Origin: a virus
Lineage: Duplodnaviria > Caudoviricetes
Reading direction: 5' to 3' (one strand)
IMG/VR virus record: IMGVR_UViG_3300021255_003843
Location: 41,496-105,495 of that record
Length of the DNA stretch: 64,000 nt
This document shows positions 19,501 through 58,672 of this stretch, piece after piece (within the stretch, counting starts at the first letter, position 1; each line of letters starts with the position of its first letter). The position numbers were made by a program, and so were the translations under genes. The notes beneath the pieces were generated by a model that worked only from the letters and a program-made list of their open reading frames with translations, had not been told where the DNA came from and ran no database searches.

Positions 19501-20915
19501 CCAGTGCCGTGCATATTCTGAGCAATATACCTCTTGCCGCTCGGACCAATAGGCACAGCCTTGCCACTCAGCAACTCTTCAATAAAAGCCTGCTGTTTCG
19601 GATCATTTCGATCATAACCATCAGCGCTGACAAAGATGACCTTGTCAGTAAAATCATTATGATGGCCTTCAAGGCCGAGCATTCTCGTGTTCTGCGATTC
19701 ACTGAGCATGACGCGAGAACTTTTTCCGGTATTATTAAACAGATCGCCGACAGTGTATTTAGCAATCTCATATTGCTCAAGCATATGCTTTGTAGATCTA
19801 CCGAGCTTCTCAAAACCTCTGCCAAGAGATCCCGCGTCAGACCAATCTTTGTCAGAACCAATGCCGTCAATGTCACTCATGATGCTAAGCAGACGGCCGG
19901 CAGAAGAAGAGGTCATGCGGCTTACAAGCTGGCGTGCCTCTTTGCTCGTCATATCTTCTAAGCCTTTGAAAATATCAACACGCTGGCTATCTCTGCCAGA
20001 AGCTCGCTTCACGAAAGACGTGAACAGGTTACGCCTGAAATCATCAAGCATCTGCGGAGTGATTTCTCTAATCAGAGACAGTTCACCATTGTCCTCAAGT
20101 TTCGTCATGCCTTTGACGCCGTAAGCAGCTCTCGCGGCTTCATCATTGTCTCTGATTAAATCTCTGAGCTGCGTTCGATTGTAGGCAGACAGGATGCGAG
20201 AACCACTCGGCATTGCCATAGAAGTATAGCCTTTATTCTTATAACTCTCCCTGAAACTTGCAGGAAGCAGGTCTACAGGCTGAGCAGTGGTGTTATTATT
20301 CCTGAGAATATGCCCATACCTTGCGCGCTGATATTCTGCGGTGTTAAAAGCAGGAAGAACGTTCGGGATCAGAGCTTCAACATATTTCTGATAGACATCG
20401 CTGCGAGTAATGCCGCCATGTCCCTTAGACATAAAGAACTCTTCAAAGGGTTTACTCTTCACGAACTCTCCGGCGGCCGTCTTAGCTGTCAAGCCAGCTA
20501 AGCGTGACGCCTGAGCTTTCAGCATAGAGGACAACTCGCCGGTTTCAGCGCTCAACTGCTGTCTGATCGTTTGCGAAAATCCATCAACAATGGATTTCGC
20601 AAACGACGCTCCGAAAGCACCGTCCTGCCCAAACAGAGAGCTCATAGTCCCAAGCTCTTTCAAACCACTCTGCACATCTTGTACAAAATCCTGGTCATCG
20701 GTTCTATTATTTAAGCGCGCCTTCGAGATTTTTTCTTGCAGCATATCTACGATCGAACTTGCGCGCTCAAGGCCTTCGTTTAATGCGCCCGTCATACTCG
20801 GCGCGTCTTCAAACGAGGTGCGAAGTTCGTTAAACTCTTGCTTAAAGTTCCGTAGTTGGCCTACAGCTTTATCAAGGTCTAACACTTCTACACTCAAAGA
20901 TAGTTTGTCAGACAA
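4554..20915 (-). CDS. Giant tape measure protein (5453 aa) with N-terminal two-barrel RNA polymerase domain (candidate virion RNAP)
   Basis: TP901-type TMP segment from about aa 1960 (FDSQMRGIQAIT...SGQVIGTAMQTIFSRM...AGGRQTNVF), coiled-coil C-terminus and position between chaperones and Dit. N-terminal motifs LADGIG (D573), FQGRMGVAGKG, QRSP (R860), SADLDGD (D906). Confidence 0.85.
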   Translation of the reverse strand: MSDKLSLSVEVLDLDKAVGQLRNFKQEFNELRTSFEDAPSMTGALNEGLERASSIVDMLQEKISKARLNNRTDDQDFVQDVQSGLKELGTMSSLFGQDGAFGASFAKSIVDGFSQTIRQQLSAETGELSSMLKAQASRLAGLTAKTAAGEFVKSKPFEEFFMSKGHGGITRSDVYQKYVEALIPNVLPAFNTAEYQRARYGHILRNNNTTAQPVDLLPASFRESYKNKGYTSMAMPSGSRILSAYNRTQLRDLIRDNDEAARAAYGVKGMTKLEDNGELSLIREITPQMLDDFRRNLFTSFVKRASGRDSQRVDIFKGLEDMTSKEARQLVSRMTSSSAGRLLSIMSDIDGIGSDKDWSDAGSLGRGFEKLGRSTKHMLEQYEIAKYTVGDLFNNTGKSSRVMLSESQNTRMLGLEGHHNDFTDKVIFVSADGYDRNDPKQQAFIEELLSGKAVPIGPSGKRYIAQNMHGTGTHAGVRMIEQQAYEAVMKREQEWAQKHGFVTADGKGANFWNDFVDSAYEFKDIESLRKHFDATGKGWSNSWDTHGNFKNRNFAVVDLSQINDENVKQKLADGIGWFMDGILPEKDFQGRMGVAGKGTFHQISGYKTVGEWAKAAGLTDANGRFILPGVGGNIDLTDYHGFVDASTIKNMQAYSNFHTPEEISKGFTAMLQHYGMSSMSTYDDAETRAKGIGTQAMAFMNLSPKMRQQQIDEFDRRINLLSSEAGIREYLFADPDNYLGKQIRSGKLNVNSSAVQSWVQNEIESLTERMSSGEWIDFGTNPSVINQTINKSPLASILGLETINGLSRSDLLKRIRQQYQEKTGTALTISDEDLEGVFALNKGQLVDFARPDAKKVAVQRSPSLFGNFVVGKNYANLARDIYKVFGQTTSGLFASEADLATLGSADLDGDKAKTIYGDLAEAFAEVVAIQEKAIQDFEGSTEPIIKKVDMPAEAAKNVDNPLHRRLFFQTSQDVTNEMGAADASARRAAMFDIYAPENKDLLAAAIQSTPTYDQATAGLKHATSTEATPQMKKALYAGAQWSKLPSRFSRLFNVTGRDNMDVPSPEDIYTATVNGHEIPINMKELRDLGFDKINFRSIFNTTDVGTMRAVSQVASKGVNMERTYALLQALEHMGYGGAGETTQALMKNLRTMKAYDIANPMAPMSAEELDDMQAMIIASKREIEEEAYQKAQGGMIKMEDGSEVSFDSYVQKKMNEYGITAAQGFIERGINQPNISSVFRTDDPAKLLPELFLGQKGGLDFTFTGKDTVLQREAVEKKLQENQAELQRIEIETKQHEEQMNQIKSTLPQEDQARYSPDMTKEEAIEASKRIYAVDGDLAKAEAEAAQVARVYDEVDQLAAGSGIDMQAYRDITAQRQRILDENAQLGKAYTYIQAQEHANTLRSSVDSVKQQFLSGLLKKENELEGKSQAETYYGSRAANVGFVYRQLEDFIKNGEEFDQLPPAMKQEFKELVGGRKDLMQQMNQDFADTTELKAKRLYENLDKTNRKRANKVSALDVQFEEYNNQLQAVEDYRNELQKHLQDREKYPFSPAERKLYEERLAETDTYLAGAREETGKMKEADITNLLDKIKGTVIKDPFQQLKQGANEAKEVVSQLSERLEKVYKDQGMSDEEVAKKMEPYSVLTQQIDENTMFQQQHLKLQDRARVAQVLSTYMADVDKYDIDKEKSFLDFREEQARINRKKQKTGFITEDEAKIVNTTFEDYKRKYDEQNIDVSRYLEGVEAVRDKAQKNVDNARKIADRIRKSDLTQEQKDERLKPLERFNDDYVKREEAAYNERIRQRQKQAELRGEQEIMQAKRAEMQVEQMNRNWQSRTAIDPLSRTYLQRQNMYDQYRSQYNYNDMMVKRMEEQQLAAKNAIDNAATDEDRNLAQAQYDSATASLDHYREALESTKEAMKEFGDTAGNFKTIGNMLAAGLETAATAADKLLQSFGRKMIRQAFTEAKNFVVQFDSQMRGIQAITMKTDEQMQAVKKATVDRAIELKTSVANVASVESDLYRQGLNDQQVEDRTGAIIKFATVTGAKVTDAGKAITTAIQNGLVNSAEEAMDALTALGDSAATTANEIFKGMQKSAAAAKVAGVSYEELTSMLTIGISKTQMSGQVIGTAMQTIFSRMNRVTNQGYVNDETGASVSINDVEKALSGAGIQLRESGGKSFRNSFDVLRDLSKVWGSLNDIQRNNITYTMAGGRQTNVFQTLMEGMGEDGGAELDRLLGLAENSEGTTDSKYAIAVKSITAAMEELKATYDGLVSSMSSNQFFVSSVDMVTGFVGGLKDLTSVAGPVSTAAVVIGGALAALATKLLIVNAASNTFKGAAGLVSTLASVVAIAGVLGVAGAIGSARKNFVDQNDPTLKAQQQIKLADSYSKNRKEGLQPLQKQIDEVQKYGEAWEKAKGNMSASDQQAFIGSLNDLAGTLDGVKKGFESAEEAGKNWKIFVTQGQDHIDKLQRDIDEDTIDMKYAAYEAAYKPDKLRDAYNASQHSVEHKNVGTSLNEKYLVNWASGTLPSDIADATSAITFDYADIMPDSIYDIDLSSEKAYEEFYQKALFSMLGIDVNDPKLNDKFKIYLNTDDGVSFLKKLGNETRARFSENVFTSITHLNPEHQKEFLNSFRNYLIGSKGQGIQKLYTDAYQQQREEEVDTFIGQILGDTDSLTGGDEEARKYLKDQLLKDTAQVLPEDLPDALHESLQRYLNTYKAPQQFQDAAKKANNKYKYFYTDENGKQLFGFDDLDKAEEAYRNYKQSIIQKTSDIIELNYDDFDINRIKTSAGLNAYRNLDQFVNDYSLNDKEYTDVYKNVLSYAMQASSYQDMADMISNVEKQIPNLTGVMTNDAEFAKMIKDLKVGTGKYTLDQFRDYLQGKVLQSSLTDYTASILSGNMSYGQELAAYNAINAGTASADQYDLIAKQWGVNRTNFDANRGLYMTLENSRLNKAREESAHGFNVYMQDLLGGFVKSMDEEEWNKLRKENKGLDFTDRIMELYANSITDESTRQEFQQFTQAAKSAGYRTTIGQDKQFSTTYTGQGYVEENPLAANGNNFYTSRQLRSVASNIVNFDLNADEAKKKYGEYLNEIKSAYPELYEWINTTDAARKKELETEIKIKFKSEGIEEVLKAGTLIKDLVELADQFSRNGIQKHEAQTTFNTELETMRNQAIAGQFANRLASGTIAWANIPSQYQELIKAGSSTYAGKSDKDFFGNEAAAAREYVAYLNSSDYRQALVNTYGSAIHAGLMTQAQAEQLGLTNGKGFQENWFNSVNYNRPNAAFDINQASMATTEEQAQKLVLKAAAQLNSGNFNVQLTEDELAAITSVYGSDVANAITTLNSSKITADRNNALDILKTAWLRLQERSGQVSDGLTNMVIQALSEGHGSAQTTSREALRDKMVQNINDVYDRVVAYNTISQYLNNGTELDAIDENLFSLIGINKNDFINADVTHRNITMTGASTDLNARLLQAQNDAAYSYDYLGAQYGTPILDAAMNKLGLNARYSDYSGAYGLFDRKTLSDLSGLTYENRSLYNPYKAMQSENSQYELANKLYGLISSNQFATPQAFGKYIENNLTPTEQAIWQNNSGSGILSNVYTMSGLIGNREADEYQLAEAEYRKAYNTRNLNRLQALSRITSDQAGWITGLYGTDDEIKTATEGINNWVSTIQQMSDIQEKSYDFAEAQSFIESMKSFSGFDKEVTADNWDDLKLSVGEELIRQNQYLPAFISLLNAANSDVGSDVMSGLGLSFDENGNLVGKNGESLLQGLWYDNWKNLYNTSGVFSNASNRAMIKDVLDNNMSLQQAGEKYLGQLGQSSELLRYLQLIEKQNNGETVDQKELDDLKKKAQESFTDNPFVGYTPQMTTAKTLEEISKLMEAGDGAKDMFAGLEDGIQSQLKSFPGLFDYLATYGSDSEAAAKAAKTLADAIRNEVIGALEEEGKVLSGLSNQLTTIANGNIIDSISQMNQLGQQITNLDEVQQAYKRLTSGQGIQRPEDWNTIKNAFNIGDNVIAQYQSGERSLANDYGYAMEEVEKLRNTTVSTAVDQILVDQLGDAAYETKQPEGFLERIKVMLGMSKPGRTQKSTSDMITGMTDAQVAEVNQRLRASQLGEIVRGENGQWQMQYGGKADAQLTWAQQLARALDTRAALGQGDQSTDYQAMLNSFELSNGNLGDFRSYVDLVQRTNGYKTTAATDLLSNTDFLAAIERGDVDAIRAMLLNGAYGITAPNATRMTTSGVSEYITAALNGDKAKLEELRKNNPTMLDYLTNNVQGFNEAYSAVMSGQQLEKYQIDALKAGSAYQTVYERERNGELKAGSAELAQRLADIDRTKGPTREERRLISAEGSELQRTSQAAQIAQTMYDNQANLTETDWEYLQTKAQLTDEEIKEYKKTPEKLKDLAKDLKGDQQKIRDSLEAAIVGAFPELSSLSDLAKDGNQKIRELVEQLLDMSGLQLTEKDGQITGISEITDNRTAYEILTQGAAANVEPEKEAETYKNRLARLAMQSSDQESLIAAINSDAELLDYLKKDEGARMLGSGFDEIFYNSEHGWTYDQMRNALIQGTGYAPLYRDQLFNNNMEIARQQFGEGFGTSSSLNLNTEQLATVQSYIASHEDFAQWLSDIEGGADLLYAIGNATEDFTYDMTALNGEFSARKIEQYNKFNKASKDIASGVRALSGDIKDSNAYMKSFRQGINAIANNQYYREKYKKGDRSNDVLSAIAQGTGLDKKDLRKGGTPVQQAIKDWETEDKQAIDNYLNTAGTMLTEGLQGTFNEKLQNLGLDGSQIQLLVDKGQVTVDLSQLANEATGAAQAQIQEIMATLSRMGMQATGVVTSDGSNIKLQFQTTDLGKGRSGGGGGGGGGGKSAAQKLLERLKREQALLNHEIKMIQYQETKYENASEIGNQNRMIELENDAQKRLIATLEKHIETTKKQMARTKKNSDDWKSLYDSVLAYEEAIEEANIAIQENTKKIEENEQAILKLHTDLETEVDTEINNRIQRERDMLAGTVSMQDAIIEAIRARYRAEWALIEKDIEKKRAALEEEKNLIDERLQRRKDAEDEAEKYEELSEYKKQLALIEMDSTRTKDAAKLREQIAKIEKEIAWDVAEDEADYQKEQIDSQLQAYDDFVNYGGEDLEAWLEDANNLADEVNQVMQMSQEGMLDWLKANVEEYGLAMDAAQKQMIQGWIDTYEQMIGYTHTYWEEIADILSGKDLFLNYMMASQDYINASEDEQKQMLYDWGEMYDNWIAAQKRDAVYSHSDNGLSGIGTNGSSKKSGSGSGSGNNANTTTDADRINVQDNNGAYVDNSRALHYDTASSGTDKIGSTSKVAQTISATANKLADNVKKLFGFDSGGLVDFTGPAWVDGTKAKPEAFLSADDTALIRSFLDEAKVVRYRSTISNIDSNSFSGNSQNIGELVINITEAQFKDDADFDEVAQRVGQKFVKELSKQGFNTMSYSF

Positions 20916-35631: not shown

Positions 35632-36016
35632 AAATGCGTACCTTCCTTATTGGCGCTCCGTGTTCAACGAGAGCGTCAATAAGCTCTTCGCTCTCCTTCG
35701 TCTTCGGGAGTTCCTCGCTTGTTGCGACGGCACTCTCAAGCTTTGCCCACTCCTTCTCTGCTTCTATGTTCGCGTAGTACGCAACAAGGAGTTTGAATAA
35801 AGCCGCCGTCTTCTTATACTTGTAGGTCTTGATGCCGTACTCGTCCTCCCGGATAAAAGTAGGCTGGATCCCATGTTCGTTTAAGTAGATATACTCACGT
35901 TTCGTCTGCGTTGAGTATTCCATATCAAAAGCCCTCTTGGGAGGGTTGAGCTTATGGATAGCAGGATGCTCGGACGTCTCTGCTACAAACGTACAATCAT
36001 CGCGATCATATTTCAT
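35624..36016 (-). CDS. Hypothetical protein, first gene of the late operon
   Basis: RBS GAGGTG; overlaps the next gene. Confidence 0.6.
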   Translation of the reverse strand: MKYDRDDCTFVAETSEHPAIHKLNPPKRAFDMEYSTQTKREYIYLNEHGIQPTFIREDEYGIKTYKYKKTAALFKLLVAYYANIEAEKEWAKLESAVATSEELPKTKESEELIDALVEHGAPIRKVRIYA

Positions 36017-36106
36017 AAATGAATCACCTCAAAAAAGTTAATCAAAATAAGAGACGCTTAACAAAAGTGCGTCTCTTTTTTAGAGACGTTGGAGCACGTC
36101 TCTCTC

Positions 36107-36133
36107 CATATATATCAATTCTCGAATGTAATC
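36107..36133 (-). promoter_or_regulatory. 27-bp motif, candidate late promoter (copy 2) at head of morphogenesis operon
   Basis: GATTACATTCGAGAATTGATATATATG. Confidence 0.7.
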
Positions 36134-36296
36134 ACAAAAATGGGATGGAAAATGGGAGTAGGAAAAGATCATATCCCCCGTGAGTTTCTTGATGAAAACT
36201 TTTTCAGCGTAAACCCCACCCCCGTAAAAAGTTTTCACTGAAACCAATGAACCCCTGGCGATATGGCGGCCGATCCGCATGAGGAAAACGCTGCCA

Positions 36297-36592
36297 AATA
36301 AAAAAAGCGACCTGCTGGAACAGGCCGCAAAGGAGGATTCTTATGAAAAAGTACACTCTATCTGTCCGTAGCACCGCAACTCGCAGAGAAGACCCTGTTT
36401 ACGACAACAATCTTTCGAAGATGAACATGGCTGCAACCATTTTCACCGTCAGAAAGGTGCCGCAGGTCGTCATTTTCGACAATGAGGAAGAAGAAATCAT
36501 TTTCCTCGCCGAGAATGGAACCGTTAAGGTGGATCATCTGCCTTAAAAATCCTCCCGCCCTTGATCTTAGCACAGACTTGTGCGCAGGTCAA
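36297..36592 (-). ncRNA. Antisense unit 1 (sigma-A promoter to intrinsic terminator) covering ORF 36343-36546
   Basis: TTGACC(36592-87)-N17-TAAGAT(36569-64) with extended TG; terminator GCGGCCTG/CAGGTCGC plus T7 at 36297-36328. Confidence 0.55.
36343..36546 (+). CDS. Small early hypothetical protein
   Basis: RBS AAGGAGG. Confidence 0.65.
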   Translation: MKKYTLSVRSTATRREDPVYDNNLSKMNMAATIFTVRKVPQVVIFDNEEEEIIFLAENGTVKVDHLP

Positions 36593-36668
36593 GGGCACTT
36601 TTCTGCCAATTAGCGGATGCGTAAATCCGCTGATGATATATCAACAAAACAAAACAGGAGGAAGAACA

Positions 36669-37007
36669 ATGTTTAACATCAATAACATGTCCCGTAGCTA
36701 CGATGCCAACTCAACCGTCTCAAAGAAACACAACAATCCTATTCCTAATTGGCTTCATGCCAAGTTTCTTCTCTGGGGTTATGATCCAATAACCGACGAC
36801 GAATATCTGTTAGGAGAAACAACTGATAAACGCATCGCTCGAAGCTGGGTTAAGGAAATAAAGCGCGATCACTACACTCGAATTGTTGTTGAATTTCCTG
36901 GATCCTATTGCACTACAGCACATGAGCTGCGCTGGTGCGACGCTAAAGCAAATCCTGAAACAGTTTATTTCACTCTAAACGATAAGAGTGAAGAGATTCC
37001 ATTTTAA
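36669..37007 (+). CDS. Early hypothetical protein ending in an SSB-like tail (EEIPF)
   Basis: RBS AGGAGG, ATG 36669. Confidence 0.65.
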   Translation: MFNINNMSRSYDANSTVSKKHNNPIPNWLHAKFLLWGYDPITDDEYLLGETTDKRIARSWVKEIKRDHYTRIVVEFPGSYCTTAHELRWCDAKANPETVYFTLNDKSEEIPF

Positions 37008-37017
37008 GGAGGAACCC

Positions 37018-37167
37018 ATGATCATTATTATTCTCATCGCTGTTGCAATCTTTTTGATTTCCATTAACGATATCCTCGACGCCGTTGACGAGATGCGCTG
37101 GCAGTTCAACATGCTGCCAGCGCGTTTCTGGAAACAGAACTATAAAACGCATCGGCGTTTTTATTGA
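37018..37167 (+). CDS. Small membrane peptide (49 aa)
   Basis: Read manually: MIIIILIAVAIFLISINDILDAVDEMRW...; RBS AAGGAGG. Confidence 0.6.
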   Translation: MIIIILIAVAIFLISINDILDAVDEMRWQFNMLPARFWKQNYKTHRRFY

Positions 37168-37256
37168 CCCGTCTGATGAGAGCTGGATAGCAACCAGCCG
37201 AAACGCGCTTTGGCGCGTCACGGGAAGCCAATACCCGTTGCGGTTTCATTCTCCGC

Positions 37257-37537
37257 AAAACAAAACCCCGGTGCACGAACACCGGGGCCTGGCGTCCACG
37301 AAAGGAGGTGATTCCTGTGGACACCGTAGCTCTGACAGCAGAGCAATGTGTATGGTTTCTGACCATCACAGCGCCATATCGCAGAACTCTGCTGAAGAAG
37401 CTGTCCACCGGCGAGTATGTGCTCGTATGGGATGCGGCAACGCATGAGTACATACTGACAAAGGTGGATTAACAGCTCACCGAGAAGGTTCACGCCCTTC
37501 TCGGTTTCAGTTTACCAGACACGTGAAGCCGTGTCAA
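37257..37537 (-). ncRNA. Antisense unit 2 covering ORF 37317-37472
   Basis: TTGACA(37537-32)-N17-TAAACT(37514-09) with extended TG; terminator CCCCGGTG/CACCGGGG plus TTTTGTTTT. Confidence 0.6.
37317..37472 (+). CDS. Small hypothetical protein (51 aa)
   Basis: Read manually: GTG start after AAGGAGGTG; MDTVALTAEQCVWFL...ILTKVD. Confidence 0.6.
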   Translation: MDTVALTAEQCVWFLTITAPYRRTLLKKLSTGEYVLVWDAATHEYILTKVD

Positions 37538-37796
37538 GATGTTAACGATTTGTTAAGTTGGATTCATAAAGAATTCCATCTTTTCATTTCGTTTTCAAAA
37601 ACCCTCGCCATCGGCAAATGATCCTGATAACACATCAGATTTGTTTGTCGATGCTTCCTGTGGTATCGGACAAGCTGGCCCTTTACAGCTTGTCCGTTTT
37701 GATATATGCTGGTTAAGAAATTGACGCTTAACCACTTCGCTAATGTCAATTATCGTAACTTGGCTGGCGAGCCTTGTACGCGGAAGGAGGAAAATG

Positions 37797-37893
37797 GAAA
37801 AGGCTCCTGCCATCAACAGGAGCCATAGGAGGAAGGGATGTGAGTATCATCAACCTTCATCAGCATTATAGCATAATCACAGCTGTAATGCAA
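37797..37893 (-). ncRNA. sigma-A promoter plus ~62-nt sRNA complementary to the RBS/start of the RNAP gene at 37983
   Basis: TTGCAT(37893-88)-N17-TATAAT(37870-65) with extended TG; terminator GGCTCCTG/CAGGAGCC plus TTTT; body pairs 9+16 nt with 37969-37999. Confidence 0.7.
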
Positions 37894-37982
37894 GCACATC
37901 GTGCGGCGATTAAGCATAGGCCTAGCCGTGGCAAGCGGTAAACTAACAGCAACTCAACAAACAAAAATTAGGAGGAAAAACC

Positions 37983-40493
37983 ATGAGTATCATTAATTTA
38001 GTGAAATCCAACACCCTGTCTGTCGAAGAAACCAACGGAACCGGTGTCACTTTGAACACCGAAAACCATGCGTTCGGTCTGACTCCCGCGTTCACTCGCT
38101 TCTCCCCCGATTACTTCCAGATCATCGACACTGGAGATATGGATCGCGGAGAAATCCCCGCAGTTCAGAACTATCTCGACAACATCATCGACAACGGCAT
38201 CCAGGATGGAAGCCGTCGCTACATCCCGGTTTTCGCCGGTTCCAGCAACCAGCGCAATGGTCAGTTTGTAATGTGCTGGGACAAAATCTGGAACGACGTT
38301 ACATCCTGGTGCTGTGCCGGTCTCGATTGCAGGAAATTGCCTGTAGGCAAGCTCGCCAAATACATGGCACTCATGTTCTCAACCGTTCGTTCCTGGGATG
38401 CTGTGTTTCCCGATGGTGGACTCTATGGGGTGTTCAAGTACCCACATCCCAGCACCTGGGGCGTGTTCCCTGACGTTGACATTGACGCTGTTGGCCTGTT
38501 CAATAAGGTCACTCCGTGGGCTGTAAACAAAGAACTGGTCCTCGGTTCTGACAAAGAGACCAACAAGATCACTGATGGTATCGCTCTGTTCGTTCTGGAC
38601 GATACTCAGCTCAACTCTCATCAGAAGAAAGAGATCATCAAGAAAGCAGAAGCTTTCACCGTCAGAGCTCCCATGGTCAAAGGTCTCTTCGTTCCTGTTC
38701 TCAAATCCGCATTGATCAAGTGGTTCGAAGATCATCCCGAAGCGTCGTCTATTCAGAAGGACGCTTGGGGCAACGAACAGAACCTGCTCGACCTCCAGGT
38801 CATCACCTTCAAGTCTGTCTTCAAAGCTTGGAAGTGCATCAAGCAGTGGTCCGAGTACGTTGAAGGCTTCGATACCTACGAGCACCATGTGTGGGTCTGC
38901 ATCGCGGCGCACGGGGAGCGTTGGGCTTCCCTGCCGTATCAGCAGCTCCAAACCCTCAACGCCAACAATGCGCAGGTCGAGGAGCTCGCGCGCACCAGCG
39001 CGAGCTTCCTCATCGACAATGCCAAGATCGGTAAGCTTGGCAAGATCATCGGAGGAAACCTTGGCAAGATCGTCGACATCTTCCCGGATATGCTGCATGA
39101 TCCCTTCGTCCGTGAGCAGCTGCAGCGGAAGTGGATTAGCCGCTGCAAGCAGATGTATGGCGGCCGCATCCTGCATGTCAGCCATAATCTGTTCTGCTCC
39201 AGCGACATCATTGCCGTTATTGAAGGGTTGACTGGTCAGTCCGTTCATGGCGTGCTGCCTGCCAATACCGTGCACACTCAGGCCTTTGGTTACGACAGGA
39301 AGCTGGGCTGCACTCGCTGCCCGCATCTCGACAACGCGTGGGTCACTCCGCGCAACATCAAGGTTCCTGAGGAATATCTTGGCCTGTACATGGGCACCAC
39401 AATCTTCTACAGCTGCAATGACAACACCATGAAGGTTCATCAGATGGACTTTGACGGTGATCACAGCAACGTTACCGACAATCCACTGCTCATCAAGCTG
39501 GCTGAGTACAGCCATGCCAGCTATGGCGATTCCTGCCTGCTGTACGCGGCCATGGACGATGGCACCGCGCCGAAGACGACGTCTGATTATAAGACTGAGT
39601 TCAACGAGCTGTGCCGCAACAGCTTCAAGGCTCCGATCGGCCTGTACGCCAACACCCTGACCAAGGTTTGGGCTCTGCGTAACATGATGGAAAAGACCAG
39701 CGCTCAGGCTAAGAACCTGTGGGTGTGGATCGCCTGCCTGACCAGGAAGGGCAACACCTGCATTGATGAAGCTGGCGGACATGGCAAAGACAGCTCCGTC
39801 GGCATCGCGGAAGACGTGGTCGAACGGTTCCGTCGGACAAAGAAGCCATGGTTCCATGGTTATGCCAAGGGCACGATCAATCCTCAGGGTCAGATCGTCC
39901 GCGCTGACGCCGACTACAAGTACGAGTTCAAGCCGTTCCACACTGTCGACGTCTATAGCGCCATCTGCCGGATGCTTGTGCCGACAGAGGCTGAAACAGT
40001 GATCGATCTGTCCGCTTATTCCATTATTTACTCCAAAGAAGTAGCGGCCAGGATCGTTCGTACCCTTATGAAGGATTCCAATGTCCGCACCCGTCGTGCG
40101 GCCATGAAGGATCTTTCTGATACCTTCGCCGATCTCGTCTGCGCAGCCAACCATGAAGAAGTGCTGATCGCTCAGAGCAGCAGCCTGGCCGCTGTGCCGA
40201 ACTTCACCATGGATAAGGTCGATCTGATCCGCGCCAAGTGCGAGCAGATCGCTCTGAACTGCGGCTACACGCTGGACGACGCTGTCGACATTCTGGTCTT
40301 CAATCTGTTCTACAAGACCAGCGCGACCAGTGCGAAAACCTCCATGATGAAGCGCTGGTTCTTCATCGCCTTCGGTGACATCGTGTTCGAAAACGCGCAG
40401 CGCAACCTGTCCGTTGAACTCACGACCACCGACAACTACGAAGACGCCTCCGAGGAGGAGGATGACGACGCGATCGATCAGTTGGAAGACTGA
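37983..40493 (+). CDS. Single-subunit two-barrel (YonO/RdRP-like) DNA-dependent RNA polymerase, early non-virion
   Basis: ITDGIA, FTVRAPMVKG, TRCPHL (R445), QMDFDGD (D489, nt 39447-39461), IGLYANTLTK. Confidence 0.85.
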   Translation: MSIINLVKSNTLSVEETNGTGVTLNTENHAFGLTPAFTRFSPDYFQIIDTGDMDRGEIPAVQNYLDNIIDNGIQDGSRRYIPVFAGSSNQRNGQFVMCWDKIWNDVTSWCCAGLDCRKLPVGKLAKYMALMFSTVRSWDAVFPDGGLYGVFKYPHPSTWGVFPDVDIDAVGLFNKVTPWAVNKELVLGSDKETNKITDGIALFVLDDTQLNSHQKKEIIKKAEAFTVRAPMVKGLFVPVLKSALIKWFEDHPEASSIQKDAWGNEQNLLDLQVITFKSVFKAWKCIKQWSEYVEGFDTYEHHVWVCIAAHGERWASLPYQQLQTLNANNAQVEELARTSASFLIDNAKIGKLGKIIGGNLGKIVDIFPDMLHDPFVREQLQRKWISRCKQMYGGRILHVSHNLFCSSDIIAVIEGLTGQSVHGVLPANTVHTQAFGYDRKLGCTRCPHLDNAWVTPRNIKVPEEYLGLYMGTTIFYSCNDNTMKVHQMDFDGDHSNVTDNPLLIKLAEYSHASYGDSCLLYAAMDDGTAPKTTSDYKTEFNELCRNSFKAPIGLYANTLTKVWALRNMMEKTSAQAKNLWVWIACLTRKGNTCIDEAGGHGKDSSVGIAEDVVERFRRTKKPWFHGYAKGTINPQGQIVRADADYKYEFKPFHTVDVYSAICRMLVPTEAETVIDLSAYSIIYSKEVAARIVRTLMKDSNVRTRRAAMKDLSDTFADLVCAANHEEVLIAQSSSLAAVPNFTMDKVDLIRAKCEQIALNCGYTLDDAVDILVFNLFYKTSATSAKTSMMKRWFFIAFGDIVFENAQRNLSVELTTTDNYEDASEEEDDDAIDQLED

Positions 40494-40601
40494 TCGTCGC
40501 GTCGCTCAGGCGTCACGCTCCGTCGCGCAAAGAGCGGCCATGCTGTGGCAAGCGGCAATTCTCTGTAATAATAAAAAACAAAAAAATGGGAGGAAAACAC
40601 A

Positions 40602-41108
40602 ATGTCTATCACTTTGAAGTCTATGCGCGCTGGTAAGGTTTCCGTCAATGAGTTCAATACCTATCCCGAGATGCTGCCCGTTCTCATGAAGATCCATGGC
40701 ATGAATCTGCCTTACTACATCCTCGAAGATGGCAAGATGATCTTCCAGGGCAACCTGGAGTTCGTCGAGAAGGAGAAGGACGCACCCGTCTCTTATACCC
40801 TGAAGACGATGAACGAGGATGGTATGACTGACACCGCTCAATTCACCAATTTCGCCGACCTGTCTATCGCTGCCGCAGTGGCAGACATCAACCATATGCC
40901 GTGGTTCGTAGTCGATAACCATTCCGGCAAGATCATTCGTCAGGGTAATATCGAGCGCGTTGCCGCCATCAAGAGCGGCAACGCGCCGGAGACCTGCGTC
41001 GCCGAAGAGCCTGTCCCCGAAACTCCTGACGTCGACGTCGATATAGACGCTACGCTTGATGAGATGAACGATCTCATCGGAGATCTCGGCGCTCTTGACA
41101 ATATCTAA
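40602..41108 (+). CDS. Hypothetical protein, acidic C-terminus
   Basis: RBS GGGAGG. Confidence 0.65.
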   Translation: MSITLKSMRAGKVSVNEFNTYPEMLPVLMKIHGMNLPYYILEDGKMIFQGNLEFVEKEKDAPVSYTLKTMNEDGMTDTAQFTNFADLSIAAAVADINHMPWFVVDNHSGKIIRQGNIERVAAIKSGNAPETCVAEEPVPETPDVDVDIDATLDEMNDLIGDLGALDNI

Positions 41109-41170
41109 GTCTGAGCTTCACACCACAGGCCGCCGTGTGCGGCCTGCGAGTGAGCCCCAGGCTCAAATAC

Positions 41171-41342
41171 AAAAGCCAGATGGATGCGGCCATCTGGCGG
41201 AAGGAGGTTACCCATGTACGGCTACTGCACTGACTGTGGCTATATGGGGCTCGTTGGTAACGAGTGGATTCTCTTCGCGACAGAAGAAGAATACCATGAG
41301 TACCTCCAGCCCGATGATACCACAGACTAACACGTAAGTCAA
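41171..41342 (-). ncRNA. Antisense unit 4 covering ORF 41214-41330
   Basis: TTGACT(41342-37)-N17-TATCAT(41319-14) with extended TG; terminator GCCAGATGG/CCATCTGGC plus TTTT. Confidence 0.6.
41214..41330 (+). CDS. Small protein (38 aa) MYGYCTDCGYMGLVGNEWILFATEEEYHEYL...
   Basis: Read manually; RBS AAGGAGG. Confidence 0.65.
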   Translation: MYGYCTDCGYMGLVGNEWILFATEEEYHEYLQPDDTTD

Positions 41343-41572
41343 GCTATGACCTGAGTACGTCGTTAAACTGCTCCGGCTTGTCTGCGCCGTAAAGACAGGC
41401 TTCTTATCCCGCAGCGCGGCTCCCCCTTTTTTCCGGCCCCATATTTTTCCCGCTTCCGCTCGCTCCGCTCCACCTCGCCTTCGGCTCGCTCCGCTCCGCT
41501 TCGCTGCTTGCGTGCGCTTCCGCGCTTGTTTCCGGATGTTGCTCTATCGTGTGATTCTGTCCGAGTTTTCCT

Positions 41573-41662
41573 GATAACTTATCTGGAAAAGTCAGGATGA
41601 GCGGCATCCTGCGATAATTTATCCATCCTTCATGTCAGGAAGAAGTTTGCAGATAAATTATC
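41573..41662. repeat. Three palindromes GATAAnTTATC at 39-40 bp spacing
   Basis: Copies at 41573, 41613 and 41652. Confidence 0.7.
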
Positions 41663-41708
41663 TGGATTTCTCAGGCAAGTCTCATGCGTCTCGCAAAATT
41701 GAGTATGG

Positions 41709-41740
41709 GCGCGCTGAGGACAGCGCGCGCCATGGTGATA
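41709..41740 (+). promoter_or_regulatory. AGGA-loop hairpin element, copy 1
   Basis: GCGCGCTG-AGGA-CAGCGCGC-GCCATGGTG. Confidence 0.7.
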
Positions 41741-41780
41741 GCTTCGTTTATCGAAATAACTTGAAGGAGGAAGCTGCGCT

Positions 41781-41942
41781 ATGGCGCTCGTGGTATTCAT
41801 AATCCTGATAACAATCATCATGCTTGGTGACATCATCGTGGATCTATTGGATCAATTCTTGTGGCCGCTCATACTGCGTCGGGACGCACTGCATGTAGAT
41901 AAGCGGAAACGTCCAAAACGCCAGAAATGGCAGTATCGTTAA
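41781..41942 (+). CDS. Small membrane peptide (53 aa) with basic tail
   Basis: Read manually: MALVVFIILITIIMLGDIIVDLLDQFLW...KRKRPKRQKWQYR; RBS AAGGAGG. Confidence 0.6.
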   Translation: MALVVFIILITIIMLGDIIVDLLDQFLWPLILRRDALHVDKRKRPKRQKWQYR

Positions 41943-42016
41943 AAACTCTACTGAATAAAAAAGCCGGACGCCCAATGAAAGGCGTCCGGCTTTCGTGAAT
42001 GAAGGAGGAAATCACT

Positions 42017-42490
42017 ATGTGCAAAATCACTGATGTTACTATTGTTACCGACGGCGCTTGCTCCGGCAATCCTGGTCCCGGAGGCTGGTGCGCTCTCATG
42101 ATCTGCGAAGGCAAGGAGCGCTCACTGCACGGCCACAAGACGCAGACCACCAACAATGAGATGGAACTCACTGCCGTGGTCCAGGGTCTTCAGGTGCTGC
42201 GCTATCCCTGCACGGTGAAGGTACTGACCGACAGCGCTTACATCGTCAACCAGATCAATGGCGGTTATCTCGAGAAGTGGGCCAGCAATGGCTGGCGCAC
42301 CTCGACGAACCAGCCGGTGCAAAACCTGCACCTGTGGCAGGACCTGCGTGCAATGCTCAATGTGCACACCGTCACCTTCGTCAAGGTGAAGGGTCACAGC
42401 GGCGATCCGCTCAACGAGAGAGCGGACCATGAAGCCTGCTGCGAGCGTGATCTTGCGAAAATCATGGCGTTCTCCGTAACGCCCGTGTAA
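42017..42490 (+). CDS. rnhA: Ribonuclease HI
   Basis: TDGACSGNPGPGGW, TTNNEMEL, TDSAY, VKGHSG..NERAD motifs. Confidence 0.95.
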   Translation: MCKITDVTIVTDGACSGNPGPGGWCALMICEGKERSLHGHKTQTTNNEMELTAVVQGLQVLRYPCTVKVLTDSAYIVNQINGGYLEKWASNGWRTSTNQPVQNLHLWQDLRAMLNVHTVTFVKVKGHSGDPLNERADHEACCERDLAKIMAFSVTPV

Positions 42491-42507
42491 TACAAGGAGG
42501 TTGTCAT

Positions 42508-42687
42508 ATGAGAAAGAACACTGGACTTATTCTCGCGATGCTGTTTATGATGTGCGTCGCTTTCGTAGCCGGTTGGCTGATCACTACGCATCATCTGGTG
42601 ATCGAGTGCGACCATCCAAAGAATACGATCTACGTGACAGACATGTTCGGCCAGGAGTGGATCTACGATTACAATTGTGTCCGCTGA
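42508..42687 (+). CDS. Small membrane-anchored protein (59 aa)
   Basis: Read manually: MRKNTGLILAMLFMMCVAFVAGW...; RBS AAGGAGG. Confidence 0.6.
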   Translation: MRKNTGLILAMLFMMCVAFVAGWLITTHHLVIECDHPKNTIYVTDMFGQEWIYDYNCVR

Positions 42688-42712
42688 TGTCACAGGTCGA
42701 ACCCGTAAAGGT

Positions 42713-42744
42713 GCGCGGCGAGGACGCCGCGCGCCATGGTGATA
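42713..42744 (+). promoter_or_regulatory. AGGA-loop hairpin element, copy 2
   Basis: GCGCGGCG-AGGA-CGCCGCGC-GCCATGGTG. Confidence 0.7.
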
Positions 42745-42778
42745 TAACGCACTTCTAATAAGTGTTGAATGAAGGAGA

Positions 42779-43117
42779 ATGAGTATGTATCAGTATAAGG
42801 TTCAGATGATCAACCACAATATGCCGTCCAGGCATTATACGCTGCAGCACAGGCTGAACACCTGGCTCGAGGCTACCGGCACGACCAAGGCAGAACTCTC
42901 CCGTGCCTGCCAGGCCTACGCTTCTCACTATCGCATGAACTTCTCTAAGACGAACATCGCTCATTATTCTGCAGGACGCTGCTGCCCGAAGACGGACACT
43001 CTCGCGATCCTGAGCCATGTCATGGGAGTCTCTGAGCAGTGGCTCACTGGCTACGGTCCGGAATCTCTGCGTGTCACCAGAACTCTGGTATCTACGACAC
43101 GCTACACCAGGGTATGA
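42779..43117 (+). CDS. XRE-family helix-turn-helix regulator
   Basis: TKAELSR...SKTNIAHYSAGRCCPKTDTLAILSHVMGVSEQWLTG. Confidence 0.8.
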   Translation: MSMYQYKVQMINHNMPSRHYTLQHRLNTWLEATGTTKAELSRACQAYASHYRMNFSKTNIAHYSAGRCCPKTDTLAILSHVMGVSEQWLTGYGPESLRVTRTLVSTTRYTRV

Positions 43118-43710
43118 CACAGATGAGAGCGTGCTGAAATATGCACGCTCTCTTTTTTCAGAATCCTGGATGAAACTCAGGCTATTCTGTACAGAAGGGT
43201 CGCGATCACTGAACGATCGGGGGACAAGCTATATAATAAATACGATGTCCCCGGATGCACGAGCTCCACTGGTAGAAAAACACCATAATGCACGAAACAT
43301 TTTGGTTAGGGAGCAATGACGTGGAATAGTTGGGAATGTAAGTGAAATCAGGGGAAATGATAGGGGAGAGAACAGTTCTTTTCCTGTTTTTCCTATTTTC
43401 TATTCCTTTTTCATGCTCAATGACCACAGCAGTGCTCCTTAATACCCCACTTTTCTATATAAGCACCAATTGTAGTTTTCTACACTGATAGAGACGGCCG
43501 TGTGTTCACGCTTCGTGAATACCCGTTGCGTATCGCTACACTGGTAGATACACACATTCCGTCTCTAACGATAGACCCATAGGGTTCCTACTAACAACAT
43601 CTAAGCGCTCCCTTTCCTCCACGCCTTTTGGATAGGCGGGGAAAGGGAGCTTATTCATGACCGTGCTTCTCTCATATTCGTTTCTAAACAACACATATGT
43701 ATCTAACATT

Positions 43711-43752
43711 ACGAAAAGGGGAGGGCTGCTGGCGCAGCCCTCCCCTTTTCGT
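43711..43752. terminator. Strong bidirectional terminator hairpin
   Basis: ACGAAAAGGGGAGGGCTGC/GCAGCCCTCCCCTTTTCGT. Confidence 0.8.
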
Positions 43753-43805
43753 GTAAATCAACGTTTTTCGTTTGCATATTCGAAGGTCCGCTTCGCGTCC
43801 CTTCT

Positions 43806-43832
43806 CATATATATCCATTCTCGAATGTAATC
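43806..43832 (-). promoter_or_regulatory. 27-bp motif (copy 3), not followed by a gene with an RBS
   Basis: GATTACATTCGAGAATGGATATATATG. Confidence 0.7.
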
Positions 43833-43930
43833 GCACCTACATACTTTATCTGATATAGTACATCGACAGATGATGTATATATATCTGGTTGAATTTTTAA
43901 CCAGATTATCCTGGACATACCTCGCCTTAA

Positions 43931-43960
43931 CCGCGCTGAGGACAGCGCGGGCCATGATGG
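43931..43960 (+). promoter_or_regulatory. AGGA-loop hairpin element, copy 3
   Basis: CCGCGCTG-AGGA-CAGCGCGG-GCCATGATG. Confidence 0.7.
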
Positions 43961-43976
43961 AACTTACGGGGACTCC

Positions 43977-44005
43977 ATTATACTGTCGCCGTGAAACCCT
44001 GTCAA
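43977..44005 (-). promoter_or_regulatory. Consensus sigma-A promoter
   Basis: TTGACA-N17-TATAAT on the minus strand, facing AGGA hairpin copy 3. Confidence 0.75.
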
Positions 44006-55632: not shown

Positions 55633-55848
55633 AGTAAACGCCGGGGGCGTCATGCACATGTAAGTATACAGGAATAAGCATTGCGGCTTATAAGGAACTT
55701 ACGCGCTTGATGTCATCAGGCGAACGTCATTACTTCAGAGACTCCTCCTCCTTTGCTAGTACGCCAGGAGGCAGCTAAAGCTGCCTCCTGGCTCCCTAGC
55801 AAAGTCGTCGGTAACTTGTTAGAAAAAGATGACGTCCCCGGTTTTACT
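55633..55848 (+). ncRNA. Retron msr-msd ncRNA located 3' of the RT
   Basis: a1/a2 arms 55633-55653 and 55829-55848 pair over 20 bp (2 GU, 1 bulge); unpaired G55654 opposite G55828; short msr stems at 55675-55690 and 55704-55722; msd hairpin 55751-55804. Confidence 0.82.
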
Positions 55849-55918
55849 ATTTTCCTACGTTCCGGCCAATGTTTTTCTGTCGGAGCGCATTGTTTTACTT
55901 TCAGAAAGGGGCGGTTTC

Positions 55919-58672
55919 ACGAGTACGAAAAGCTATTTAAGCAGTCAAATCCGCCTGATTTCACTCACTACCTACGACCTCCTCACCGAAGAGGAACGCA
56001 CTGTTTACTTCAAGATCGCCGAGCTCAAGAATAAGCTGAACGATCGTACCGGAGAGCGCGAGCAGATCCTTGAACAGAAGAAGATTCTGCAGCAGCAGCT
56101 CTCACAGCTCATTGCCTCCCATGAACATGTACCTCGGTCTGTCAACCTGGATGCCGTGCTCGATCCTACGTTACCGGTGCGCCCGCCGGGGGTTTCCTGG
56201 AAAACTCTCCGGCCTACCAGACGCATCGCCGAGTTCGTGTCCGAAGAAAGCAGGCTCCTTCAGCTGGAGCCTAATGCCATCTCCTTTGACAAGATCATCG
56301 TCAAGTGGAAATCGCTGGACATTCTGCGTCAAATCATACTGAACGGCTTCACCATGCCGGTCATGAATGGGGCGGGAGAGATCGTTGTCAAGCGCTACCG
56401 CTTCCACACAGCCAGCGCGGGACAATTGCGCACCGATAAGGTGCAGTTTATCGCGGAAGACGCCTGGTCCCGCATCGCGCCAGGTATTATGTGCGGTCTG
56501 ACCTGGAACATCATCAACCAAAAAGGCGGCATCAATACCTCAAAGCTGATGGCTTATCTGTCCCTGCCAAGCTCGGCAACCGATCCCTTTGACCTCGACA
56601 TCGATCGCTGTATCGTCGTGGATGATTTTGAAGCGCCTGTTACAGGCATGATGGATTACATTAAGCCGGATTACACGATAGAACGTGGCGTTCGCACAGT
56701 TACAATCAATCATACCGATGGCAGCGGCATGATGCTTCCTTCCGTGTCTCGGTGGAACTTCATGATTCGTGGACCTTGGCTCAAAGGATTGCTCTGTTCG
56801 TTTGACTTCCTGCGCTTCTGCTCTGTCAATCACTGCGAGCCGAAGCTTACAGATGTCTGGGGACAGGAGCATGATTTGATGGCGGAAGATATTCAGGTTA
56901 TCTTCACCAAGAGCCAGCTGAAGCTGTGGAAATACTACGACAGCTGGGATCAGTACAAAACCTGCTTCAAGGAGTGTGGCTGTCACTTCGGTCGCACGAA
57001 TATGGAAGAGGCTTACATCCAAAACTCGGAAACCAACTATCAATTTCTTCAAACACTGGTCGATTTTCCAGACGAAAATCTCAGAGAATTTATCAGGCCA
57101 ACTTATGATCGCATCAAAACCCTGTCAACTGACCGGGAGCACATGCTGCATGCGTTGGGCGCAGATGATTTCTCTGAAATTCCGTACCGAAACGCGCTGC
57201 AAATCTATCCCGAGCTTCTGCGCGAAGCGTATTCGCGTGACTCACTGAAGGCAATCAAGAAACGCTGGACGCTGGACGCCAGGTCTGGCAAGATCCGCTG
57301 TAAAAATAAGCGTCTCTTTGCCATCCCGGATTTCTATGCCGCGTGCCAGTTCTGGTTCCTTCATGAGCAGGAACCCGTGGGCCTTTTGCAGAACGGCGAG
57401 GTGTTCGCAAGGCCTTTTATGCAAACGGATGAGGTTGATGTATTAAGGAGTCCACATCTGTATTTTGAACATGCACTCCGAAAAGTCAACCATGATCCAA
57501 ACATCGCCAGCTGGTTTTATACCAATGGAATTTACACCAGCTGCCACGATCTGATCAGCAGAATCCTCCAATTCGATGTAGACGGGGACCAGCTAAACGT
57601 CCTGTCAGATCAGATCATTTTGAAAGTAGCCAGGCAGAACCTGGAAAAGTACGACATCGTCCCACTATTCTACGACGCCACGAAAGCTCCTCCGGAACAG
57701 GTTACCTCAGAAGCTTTGTTTCACGGCGTCAAGCGCGCGCATGACTACAGCGGCATCGGTCAGATCTCCAACTCGCTTACGCGGCTTTGGAACAGACCTA
57801 ACCCTGATTTTACGTCTGCTGCGCTGCTGTGCTATTACAATAACCTGACGATTGACGGCGCAAAAACCGGGTCCGTCAATTCCTACGACAAATACCCGGA
57901 AATCTCTGCCCGCATTAACAAAGCGATCGGCGGCCCTAATGGGAGAATGCCATACTGGTTTCAGTTCTCCAAGAACGGCCGGCGCGCAGACACGGCTACG
58001 AAAAAGAAGAAGTTGTGCGCAAAGCCTAATGATTCCACGATGAATCGGCTTTGCGCTTTATTTGATGATATAGGAATAATCAATATGAATGCGGCAGGCG
58101 TTCCGCCATTCAACGGCAATATGTTTCTGGAGAATCCGGTCATGGATTATAACGAACAGGCTGTTGAACTTTTTAATACGCTGGACGCCAGTAATCTCCA
58201 GTCTCGTATCGAAGGCGCTTCCATGATGGATATTATGGAAAAGTACAACGCCATCGGCTACGAGGCTTTGAAGGAACTGATCACAGACAAGCTGACCGAC
58301 CTGTGCGGCAGCCTGGAAAACGCTTATCCGTCCATTGCCTACTATCTTTTCATAGGCGAAGGCGCGGACAAAGCTTCCCATAAGCAAATGTTCTGGCGCG
58401 TGTTCGGCGACATCGCGCTGCGCAACCTGAAGTTCAACCTGATGACCTCTGTCTCGTGTCCTCACTGCGGCATGAAACTGCCGGTATGGGAGGAGGGGCA
58501 TGTCTGCTCTCCTGTAGCCCACGGTTTCTTCACCTGTGAAGATTGTGGGCAGTGGTGTCCTCGCACCAACAGCAGGCAGCGCCGCTGTGCCGCATGTCAG
58601 AAGGAGTATCGTAGGGCTTCGCTCGTCGCGCACAATCAGAAGTATCGCGCCATCAAAAAGGAGACGGCCTGA
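55919..58672 (+). CDS. YonO-like single-subunit RNA polymerase with C-terminal Zn ribbons (candidate late RNAP); start uncertain
   Basis: SAGQLR, HTDGSG, FMIRGPWLKG, LRSPHL, QFDVDGD (nt 57575-57589), IGQISNSLT, IDGAKT; CxxC pairs at the C-terminus. RBS AGAAAGGGG sits 7 nt before an in-frame ACG at 55919. Confidence 0.88.
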   Translation, partial: TSTKSYLSSQIRLISLTTYDLLTEEERTVYFKIAELKNKLNDRTGEREQILEQKKILQQQLSQLIASHEHVPRSVNLDAVLDPTLPVRPPGVSWKTLRPTRRIAEFVSEESRLLQLEPNAISFDKIIVKWKSLDILRQIILNGFTMPVMNGAGEIVVKRYRFHTASAGQLRTDKVQFIAEDAWSRIAPGIMCGLTWNIINQKGGINTSKLMAYLSLPSSATDPFDLDIDRCIVVDDFEAPVTGMMDYIKPDYTIERGVRTVTINHTDGSGMMLPSVSRWNFMIRGPWLKGLLCSFDFLRFCSVNHCEPKLTDVWGQEHDLMAEDIQVIFTKSQLKLWKYYDSWDQYKTCFKECGCHFGRTNMEEAYIQNSETNYQFLQTLVDFPDENLREFIRPTYDRIKTLSTDREHMLHALGADDFSEIPYRNALQIYPELLREAYSRDSLKAIKKRWTLDARSGKIRCKNKRLFAIPDFYAACQFWFLHEQEPVGLLQNGEVFARPFMQTDEVDVLRSPHLYFEHALRKVNHDPNIASWFYTNGIYTSCHDLISRILQFDVDGDQLNVLSDQIILKVARQNLEKYDIVPLFYDATKAPPEQVTSEALFHGVKRAHDYSGIGQISNSLTRLWNRPNPDFTSAALLCYYNNLTIDGAKTGSVNSYDKYPEISARINKAIGGPNGRMPYWFQFSKNGRRADTATKKKKLCAKPNDSTMNRLCALFDDIGIINMNAAGVPPFNGNMFLENPVMDYNEQAVELFNTLDASNLQSRIEGASMMDIMEKYNAIGYEALKELITDKLTDLCGSLENAYPSIAYYLFIGEGADKASHKQMFWRVFGDIALRNLKFNLMTSVSCPHCGMKLPVWEEGHVCSPVAHGFFTCEDCGQWCPRTNSRQRRCAACQKEYRRASLVAHNQKYRAIKKETA

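Follow-up and report, generated by a model that had tools for sequence, protein, structure and literature searches.

Antisense RNAs that block ribosome binding have already been described in phages for antirepressor and cII-type switch genes. In phage P22 the untranslated sar RNA of 68-69 nucleotides (nt) is transcribed from its own opposite-strand promoter, ends at an intrinsic terminator and blocks the ribosome-binding site of a lytic-switch gene, and in P1 and P7 the ~77-nt c4 RNA of the immI region represses the translation of icd-ant (PMC12197685). Phage SPbeta makes the type I antitoxin RNAs SR4/bsrG and SR6/yonT-yoyJ, of which SR6 acts by blocking the ribosome-binding site of yoyJ and by inducing cleavage by RNase III (PMC8270828). 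Here we analyse a 64,000-nt stretch of phage DNA (hereafter the window; positions 41,496 to 105,495 of the virus record IMGVR_UViG_3300021255_003843 in IMG/VR, which is 105,495 bp long and estimated to be 95% complete). In it, a predicted small-RNA gene on the minus strand lies 5' of a gene for a YonO-like single-subunit RNA polymerase and contains a copy, or mimic, of the translation-initiation region of that gene.

The locus resembles each of these systems in part. With sar it shares a promoter of its own on the opposite strand, an intrinsic terminator and, for the window RNA as a prediction, pairing with a ribosome-binding site; sar, however, overlaps the real ant ribosome-binding site and is truly cis-encoded, whereas what the window RNA overlaps is a mimic lying 143 nt further upstream, and it would reach the real site only through imperfect pairing that includes G-U pairs and an internal loop. 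The likeness to c4 would lie in trans action on a ribosome-binding region via two short complementary blocks, with copies of the target sequence near the RNA gene, and in the few base changes of the pairing segment that set specificity between close phages (heteroimmunity), which are paralleled by the differing seeds of the window and its relatives L003 and L018. The targets differ, being an antirepressor operon for c4 and an RNA polymerase for the window RNA, and no sequence or Rfam similarity was found between the two. Moreover, c4 is cut from a same-strand operon transcript, whereas the window RNA has its own convergent promoter. The SPbeta antitoxins, too, come from convergent small-RNA genes under host promoters, and SPbeta likewise encodes a YonO polymerase, but they guard conserved toxic peptides, whereas the open reading frame (ORF) of the window clade is not conserved and is without a long hydrophobic segment, and it is the polymerase that the window RNA matches. 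Plasmid countertranscripts (R1 CopA, pIP501 RNAIII and pT181 RNAI) are constitutive short antisense RNAs in the leader of an essential replication or expression gene, and they resemble the window RNA in presenting stem-loops for first contact and in having an allele-specific sequence. They act strictly on the overlapping leader, by leader-peptide coupling or attenuation, whereas no coupling or attenuator is evident at the window locus. As predicted from the DNA, the unit would be unlike both sar and c4 in being a mimic transcribed backwards, with a phage RNA polymerase as its predicted target. Our search of the literature found no phage antisense RNA aimed at a phage-encoded RNA polymerase, and the term 'RNA polymerase' is absent from the text of the 2025 review of phage small RNAs (PMC12197685).

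The gene behind the mimic encodes an 836-aa protein that a preliminary description of this DNA had labelled an RNA polymerase, and this label was upheld. In tblastn searches 61% of the protein aligned with yonO of SPbeta (E about 2e-12), and there were further matches to Goe-phage genes whose annotation is DNA-directed RNA polymerase (E about 1e-12); the protein also matched phrog_8308 (E 4e-58), and its DFDGD motif (residues 489-493) was invariant in 14 homologues. PF05183 was found in remote homologues, while a Pfam search with the polymerase and its neighbouring proteins gave no direct match and a profile search of the PDB with the polymerase gave no sequence match. By its homology to YonO and its DxDGD metal-binding motif, the protein is a YonO-like single-subunit RNA polymerase.

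An imperfect direct repeat of the initiation region of this gene had been reported upstream of it, and comparison of the two sites confirmed it. Positions 37826-37853 can be aligned in register with 37969-37996 over 28 nt at 75% identity, the real site lying 143 nt downstream of the mimic. The shared sequence begins with nine exact bases (TAGGAGGAA), followed by a differing 6-nt spacer, ten further exact bases (TGAGTATCAT) and a partly matching tail. Within the 16-nt block there are only three differences, and each of them is, as had been claimed, a C in the copy and a T in the target. The 10-mer TGAGTATCAT occurs at only two places in the entire 105,495-bp genome, the mimic and the polymerase start, and among 7,626 pairs of sites anchored on GGAGG these two formed the sole genuine pair with at least 13/16 matches at the same offset; two other pairs reaching this value were palindromes matching themselves.

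The mimic lies between a minus-strand promoter and a terminator, in agreement with the preliminary description: TTGCAT-17-TGc-TATAAT stands on one side and a hairpin with a U-tract on the other (Table 1). The promoter scored 12 with the TG present, and its -10 is perfect and extended; the standard promoter scan had missed it because its -35 is poor. The U-tract (~37801-37789) reads UUUUCCAUUUUCC in the window and UUUUUUAUUUU in L003 and L018. The RNA predicted from these signals, 5'-GAAGGUUGAUGAUACUCACAUCCCUUCCUCCUAU followed by the terminator, has a predicted fold of -24.4 kcal/mol in three parts: a 5' hairpin formed by nt 1-27 (37858-37832), with a loop of 7 nt (AUACUCA) that is complementary to the region of the start codon, an unpaired linker, CUCCUAU, complementary to the Shine-Dalgarno sequence (anti-SD), and the terminator hairpin. 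This fold is also predicted for the L003 and L018 RNAs, and in all three versions the predicted RNA start is the exact base of the 5' hairpin, in which the pair G11-C19 of the window is replaced by A-U in L003 (one compensatory pair). No conserved minus-strand ORF was found in the small-RNA region, where a TTG frame crosses the terminator and is not matched in L003. A promoter and an intrinsic terminator of its own enclose this short stretch lacking a conserved ORF, the make-up of a small-RNA gene. At the gathering threshold Rfam 15 recognised only three tRNAs in the window, and with E up to 1 over 36000-38100 it gave no family at 37700-38000.

Two readings based on a peptide encoded on the + strand were rejected. 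The 33-aa ORF of the window, considered as a leader peptide or toxin, is replaced by 11 aa in L003 and 10 aa in L018, with nothing common to the three beyond Met-Ser; a type I toxin-antitoxin module was discarded on the unlike lengths and sequences of these mini-ORFs, whose frame is broken by a 1-nt indel. Beside the terminator, the SD and ATG at window 37757-37797 (GGAAGGAGGAAAATGG) correspond by homology to the beginning of a 58-aa gene kept in L005 (2608-2797). The body of this gene is gone from the window, and the remnant, with its SD and ATG at 37784-37796, supplies the interrupted U-tract of the small RNA.

In the duplex predicted between the small RNA and the polymerase message, 9 bp cover the SD and 16 bp extend from the start codon to codon 6, with a 6x6 internal loop between the two blocks; its energy is -32.9 kcal/mol, with a net gain of -19.8 kcal/mol after both RNAs have been unfolded. 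When the anti-SD was kept and the rest of the RNA was shuffled, none of 2,000 shuffles reached the observed energy, and in a scan of 26,360 sequence windows on both strands of the 105-kb genome the polymerase start was the best non-self site for the small RNA. By both measures, complementarity to the SD and start codon goes beyond chance. A + strand structure that hides the true ribosome-binding site was considered and rejected, as the predicted fold of the leader (37717-38030) does not sequester the site.

Close relatives allowed a comparison of alleles. The 90% cluster of the polymerase has four members, the window, L017, L003 and L018. The small-RNA unit of L017 is identical to that of the window; the polymerase genes of L003 and L018 have 89% nucleotide identity to the window's, and their small-RNA units have a different pairing segment. 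Codon 2 of the polymerase is the same in gene and mimic throughout, reading AGT/AGT in the window and L017, TCT/TCT in L003 and TCC/TCC in L018, and given the ~11% difference between the genes an independent identical two-base change in the copy would be about a 1-in-1000 event. The cognate duplexes had energies of -32.9 (window), -32.3 (L003) and -30.5 kcal/mol (L018), against -19.2 to -29.7 for swapped combinations, and the net cofold gains of the cognate pairs were -19.8, -15.9 and -14.3 in the same order, the cognate partner being the best in every row and column. Regulator and target co-vary in three matched alleles, with a small margin in one of them.

In the window and L003, the mimic and target differ within the 16-nt block only by a C in the copy against a T in the target or an A in the copy against a G in the target, differences that yield G-U pairs only if the minus strand is the RNA. 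The L018 copy has two 7-bp blocks by the start codon with one G-U-compatible difference and a one-base bulge, and it diverges from its target further downstream. In a three-way alignment no position of the -35, the -10, the SD or the terminator stem changes; variation is seen in the terminator loop, at two spacer positions and, most of all, in the pairing segment. L003 and L018 have an extra cassette not present in the window, and the template of the second L003 unit is identical to the polymerase SD-ATG region over 17 contiguous bases. The first 18 nt of the polymerase genes are 72% identical, compared with 89% overall, which places them in the lowest 7% of windows and is a trend only. Pattern scans of IMG/VR for further alleles of this kind (type A) found none, and a metagenome scan for them returned one locus of the type described below as B (L012).

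Table 1. Coordinates, in window numbering, of the small-RNA unit, its predicted target and related features of the early region.
Feature	Position	Strand	Evidence or remark
Mimic of the polymerase translation-initiation region (TAGGAGGAA, 6 nt, TGAGTATCATCAACCT)	37826..37856	+	templates the pairing segment of the small RNA
Proposed target: SD, spacer, ATG and codons 2-6 of the polymerase gene	37969..37999	+	predicted duplex
Small-RNA promoter, sigma-A/sigma-70 type	37865..37893	-	-35 TTGCAT 37893-37888, 17-nt spacer, TGc-TATAAT, -10 hexamer 37870-37865
Intrinsic-terminator hairpin of the small RNA	37802..37824	-	GGCTCCTGTTGATGGCAGGAGCC then TTTTCCATTT, 9-10-bp GC stem
Predicted small RNA, about 60-69 nt by U-tract end point	37795..37858	-	start at G 37858
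YonO-like single-subunit RNA polymerase gene, 836 aa	37983..40493	+	homology, DFDGD motif
Candidate host-type promoter, TTTACA-17-TATGCT	37682..37710	+	promoter scan
Minus-strand promoters of the early region	36564-92, 37509-37, 37865-93, 41314-42, 43977-44005	-	promoter scan
Matching minus-strand terminators	36308-27, 37267-86, 37802-24, 41176-97, 43719-44	-	60-260 nt downstream of the promoters

With modest confidence, we favour the view that the small minus-strand RNA represses translation of the polymerase by pairing with its initiation region. Host RNA polymerase would transcribe an untranslated RNA of ~65 nt from the minus-strand promoter at 37893-37865, ending at the hairpin and U-tract of 37824-37789. 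The first 33 nt of this RNA, templated by the copy of the polymerase ribosome-binding region, would then pair with the real site 143 nt downstream; this duplex would deny the 30S subunit access to the mRNA and would probably invite RNase III, so that less YonO-like polymerase is made. In the simplest case a constitutive host-made RNA would mask the SD and AUG and titrate translation of the polymerase, and the pairing segment, which tracks each phage's own polymerase start, would be the specificity determinant. It is the geometry of the pairing that suggests repression as its outcome.

The preliminary description had proposed an RNA switch of this sort, and much of that proposal stands: a predicted minus-strand RNA driven by a host promoter, whose 5' part would pair with the SD and start codon, is supported by the three matched alleles, by the invariant hexamers and terminator stem next to a variable pairing segment, and by the absence of conservation in the + strand ORF. 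What it had missed was that the RNA may also be perfectly antisense to the leader of its target, that distant relatives have a different cassette and that the early region has five similar units. The role that it suggested in latency or superinfection immunity is speculative, being based on the presence of a tyrosine integrase and on analogy with c4 of P1/P7.

The first of these points depends on the candidate + strand promoter upstream of the unit. A + strand terminator hairpin at 37667-37696 has the TTTACA of this promoter in its loop and is followed by the TATGCT, making a terminator-promoter composite at window 37667-37710; the homologous site in L010 and L011 is TTGACT-16-TATAAT, which is near-consensus in L010. 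If the promoter is used, the polymerase mRNA would have a leader of ~265 nt containing the perfect complement of the small RNA. The RNA would then be perfectly antisense to a 62-nt stretch of leader and have two binding sites per message, and cis-antisense effects on the leader may add to or replace the effect in trans.

Thirteen further loci (L002, L004-L016 and L024) were examined, with polymerases 46-79% identical to the window's, except for that of L024, which is barely recognisable. All 13 have, at the same place, a different minus-strand promoter-terminator cassette, which we call type B, and an antisense unit 5' of the polymerase gene is therefore family-wide. The type-B minus-strand terminator is conserved (AAAAGCCGGGTG-loop-CACCCGGC) and is followed on the + strand by (A)AGGAGG; the minus-strand promoter lies 60-250 nt to the right and reads TTGACC-17-TATAAT or TAGAAT, or TTGCAA-17-TGgTACAAT, with the edge of its -35 21-59 nt from the polymerase ATG. 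In the stem there is a compensatory change in L005 (GCCAGGTG/CACCTGGC), and the changes in L002 give G-U on the minus strand and C-A on the + strand. An ORF follows the type-B SD in L009 only (41 aa). Polymerase-specific pairing was also looked for in type-B units of 12 relatives and rejected, the cognate combination being no better than others with the exception of unit 2 of L003. Judged from the sequences compared, the polymerase-specific mimic is an innovation of the clade formed by the window, L003 and L018.

Long versions of the type-B cassette occur in L010 and L013-L016 (for example L013:1960-2152), with two hairpins that have the same loop, GTTACCAGCA, and the minus-strand promoter inside a long palindrome (CCCCATTTG...CAAATGGGG). 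In L024 (8774-11723, minus strand) a type-B cassette lies 5' of a gene for a 937-aa protein that matches the two YonO-like proteins of the window only around DNDGD/DFDGD (E about 4e-4), and there the regulatory cassette seems to be more conserved than the gene behind it.

The small-RNA unit is one of several in its neighbourhood. The early region of the window (36297-44005) has its genes on the + strand and contains five strong minus-strand promoters, all with 17-nt spacers, each with a matching terminator; promoters of such strength number only 13 on both strands of the whole genome. In 4/5 of these units the terminator abuts the SD of a + strand reading frame. The small-RNA unit is the odd one of the five, as it covers a mimic and not a real gene start. 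The same bias was seen in 11 related loci, where about 29 host-type promoters on the minus strand compare with 2 on the + strand, and 29 minus-strand terminators with 9 on the + strand.

Several of these observations weigh against repression of the polymerase by a matched small RNA. Some concern the signals themselves: the -35 of the promoter, TTGCAT, is weak, with only 3/6 matches, and the U-tract is interrupted in the window, being cleaner in the relatives (TTTTTTATTTT). Others concern the pairing. A second site at 58482-58537 is nearly equal in energy to the polymerase start (-32.2 kcal/mol); it lies in the 3' part of the second YonO-like gene of the window, a paralogue of 947 aa at 55829-58672, and this pairing is probably due to chance. 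There are only three independent alleles, the L018 RNA prefers its own target only marginally (-30.5 vs -29.7), and short-patch gene conversion could imitate the co-variation. Polymerase-specific pairing is, among the loci compared, confined to one small clade, and the anti-SD of type B shows no preference for its own polymerase (diagonal mean -14.7, off-diagonal -14.4 kcal/mol). Finally, the module of hairpin plus SD also precedes real genes (36343, 37308, 41213 and the 41-aa ORF of L009), and an ordinary gene start could be the origin of the mimic.

These points bear on three other explanations. The RNA may be real while its working target is the perfectly complementary leader, or convergent transcription itself, so that control is exerted by a countertranscript, by promoter collision or by RNase III cleavage, as in plasmid copy control, and the resemblance to the true ribosome-binding site is a by-product of the origin of the cassette. 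Such an explanation is in keeping with the upstream + strand promoter, near-consensus in L010, which would make the leader overlap the RNA, with the 13/13 distant relatives that keep a minus-strand promoter 21-59 nt from the ATG and a terminator without polymerase-specific pairing, and with the four other window units, which are plain cis-antisense units. What it leaves unexplained is how the mimic tracks polymerase codon 2 through three states, why most differences between mimic and target are G-U compatible, and why the second unit of L003 contains 17 contiguous bases of the polymerase SD-ATG region; we regard it as unlikely. Alternatively, the element may function on the + strand, where a hairpin and strong SD in the leader, with or without a mini-ORF, could stabilise the mRNA or load ribosomes, in the manner of the Bacillus cryIIIA STAB-SD or of 5' stem-loops blocking RNase J1, with only a secondary part for the minus-strand signals. 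The module of A-run, GC hairpin and AGGAGG does recur 5' of real genes (36308-36345, 37267-37310 and 41176-41215), the type-B hairpin and SD are kept in all relatives in spite of an ORF behind them in L009 only, and the compensatory pair of the 5' hairpin is equally compensatory on the + strand. However, an A-run before the hairpins with no T-run after them fits termination on the minus strand only, and variants in the L002 type-B stem and in the window hairpin 36308-36327 give G-U on the minus strand and C-A on the + strand, even if the count over all minus-strand hairpins (17 G-U vs 10 A-C) is too noisy to settle the strand. The minus-strand promoter hexamers are moreover conserved, with spacers that vary in sequence at a fixed length, and a stabiliser would have no reason to copy the first six codons of the polymerase. 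A + strand function is in our view improbable.

The mimic might, lastly, be a duplicate of the polymerase start that is decaying and has no function, or what mosaic recombination has left of a small early gene. The region is indeed mosaic, as seen in the SD and ATG at 37784-37796 that were the start of the 58-aa gene retained in L005, in the extra cassette of L003 and L018, and in the enclosed ORF that is broken differently in each phage. A neutral relic, though, would not match the polymerase start in all three of its states, AGT, TCT and TCC, nor would its promoter hexamers and terminator stem stay invariant while the middle diverges, and cognate pairing is the best in all three phages, so that decay without function appears very improbable. 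Repression of polymerase translation through the matched pairing segment is the reading that we retain.

In the wider genome, the structural genes of the minus strand (terminase, portal and a 5,453-aa ORF) end near 36016, and + strand genes lie beyond. The 5,453-aa product is encoded by a single ORF among the virion genes (window 4554-20915, minus strand), and from this length we suspect a giant protein that is injected and might include a polymerase module, as is seen in N4-like and crAss-like phages. A motif, GTGGCAAGCGG, with the lead-in GCC(T)A..C.G occurs at window 37926-37943 and 40545-40556, ~45-55 nt 5' of the ATG of the polymerase gene and of the next gene (40602) respectively, and is kept in L003 and L018; it may be a promoter for a phage polymerase or a leader element. 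No near-identical DNA to the window was found in 50,697 phage records. Outside the window, a 426-aa frame (G000:C1:25560-26087) contains the tyrosine integrase domain PF00589 (68.5 bits), which suggests that the phage may be temperate. Neither an HTH_3 repressor nor a serine recombinase was found in the phage genome, and a search of 185,579 species genomes found no prophage copy.

If the small RNA acts as proposed, it would provide a simple handle on how phages with YonO-like polymerases time or silence their own transcription machinery. It would also illustrate a design trick in which a copy of the target ribosome-binding region is placed in non-coding DNA and transcribed backwards, which removes the need for a promoter within the target gene. 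The three alleles matched in nature offer, in effect, a compensatory-mutation experiment that is ready to use. In the 11 related early regions, the excess of about 29 minus-strand over 2 plus-strand promoters suggests that a whole antisense layer exists in this uncultured phage group. Host-type promoters are few on the early coding strand, and for this reason the early genes of the family may perhaps be read by a phage polymerase, with host RNA polymerase reserved for antisense RNAs that silence them. The unit studied here would then shut off the YonO-like polymerase by means of a movable mimic, and the seed alleles would be immunity specificities of sibling phages, a wider picture that is doubtful and offered tentatively. 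If it is true, it would amount to RNA-only immunity in a phage whose early transcription escapes a classical repressor of host promoters.

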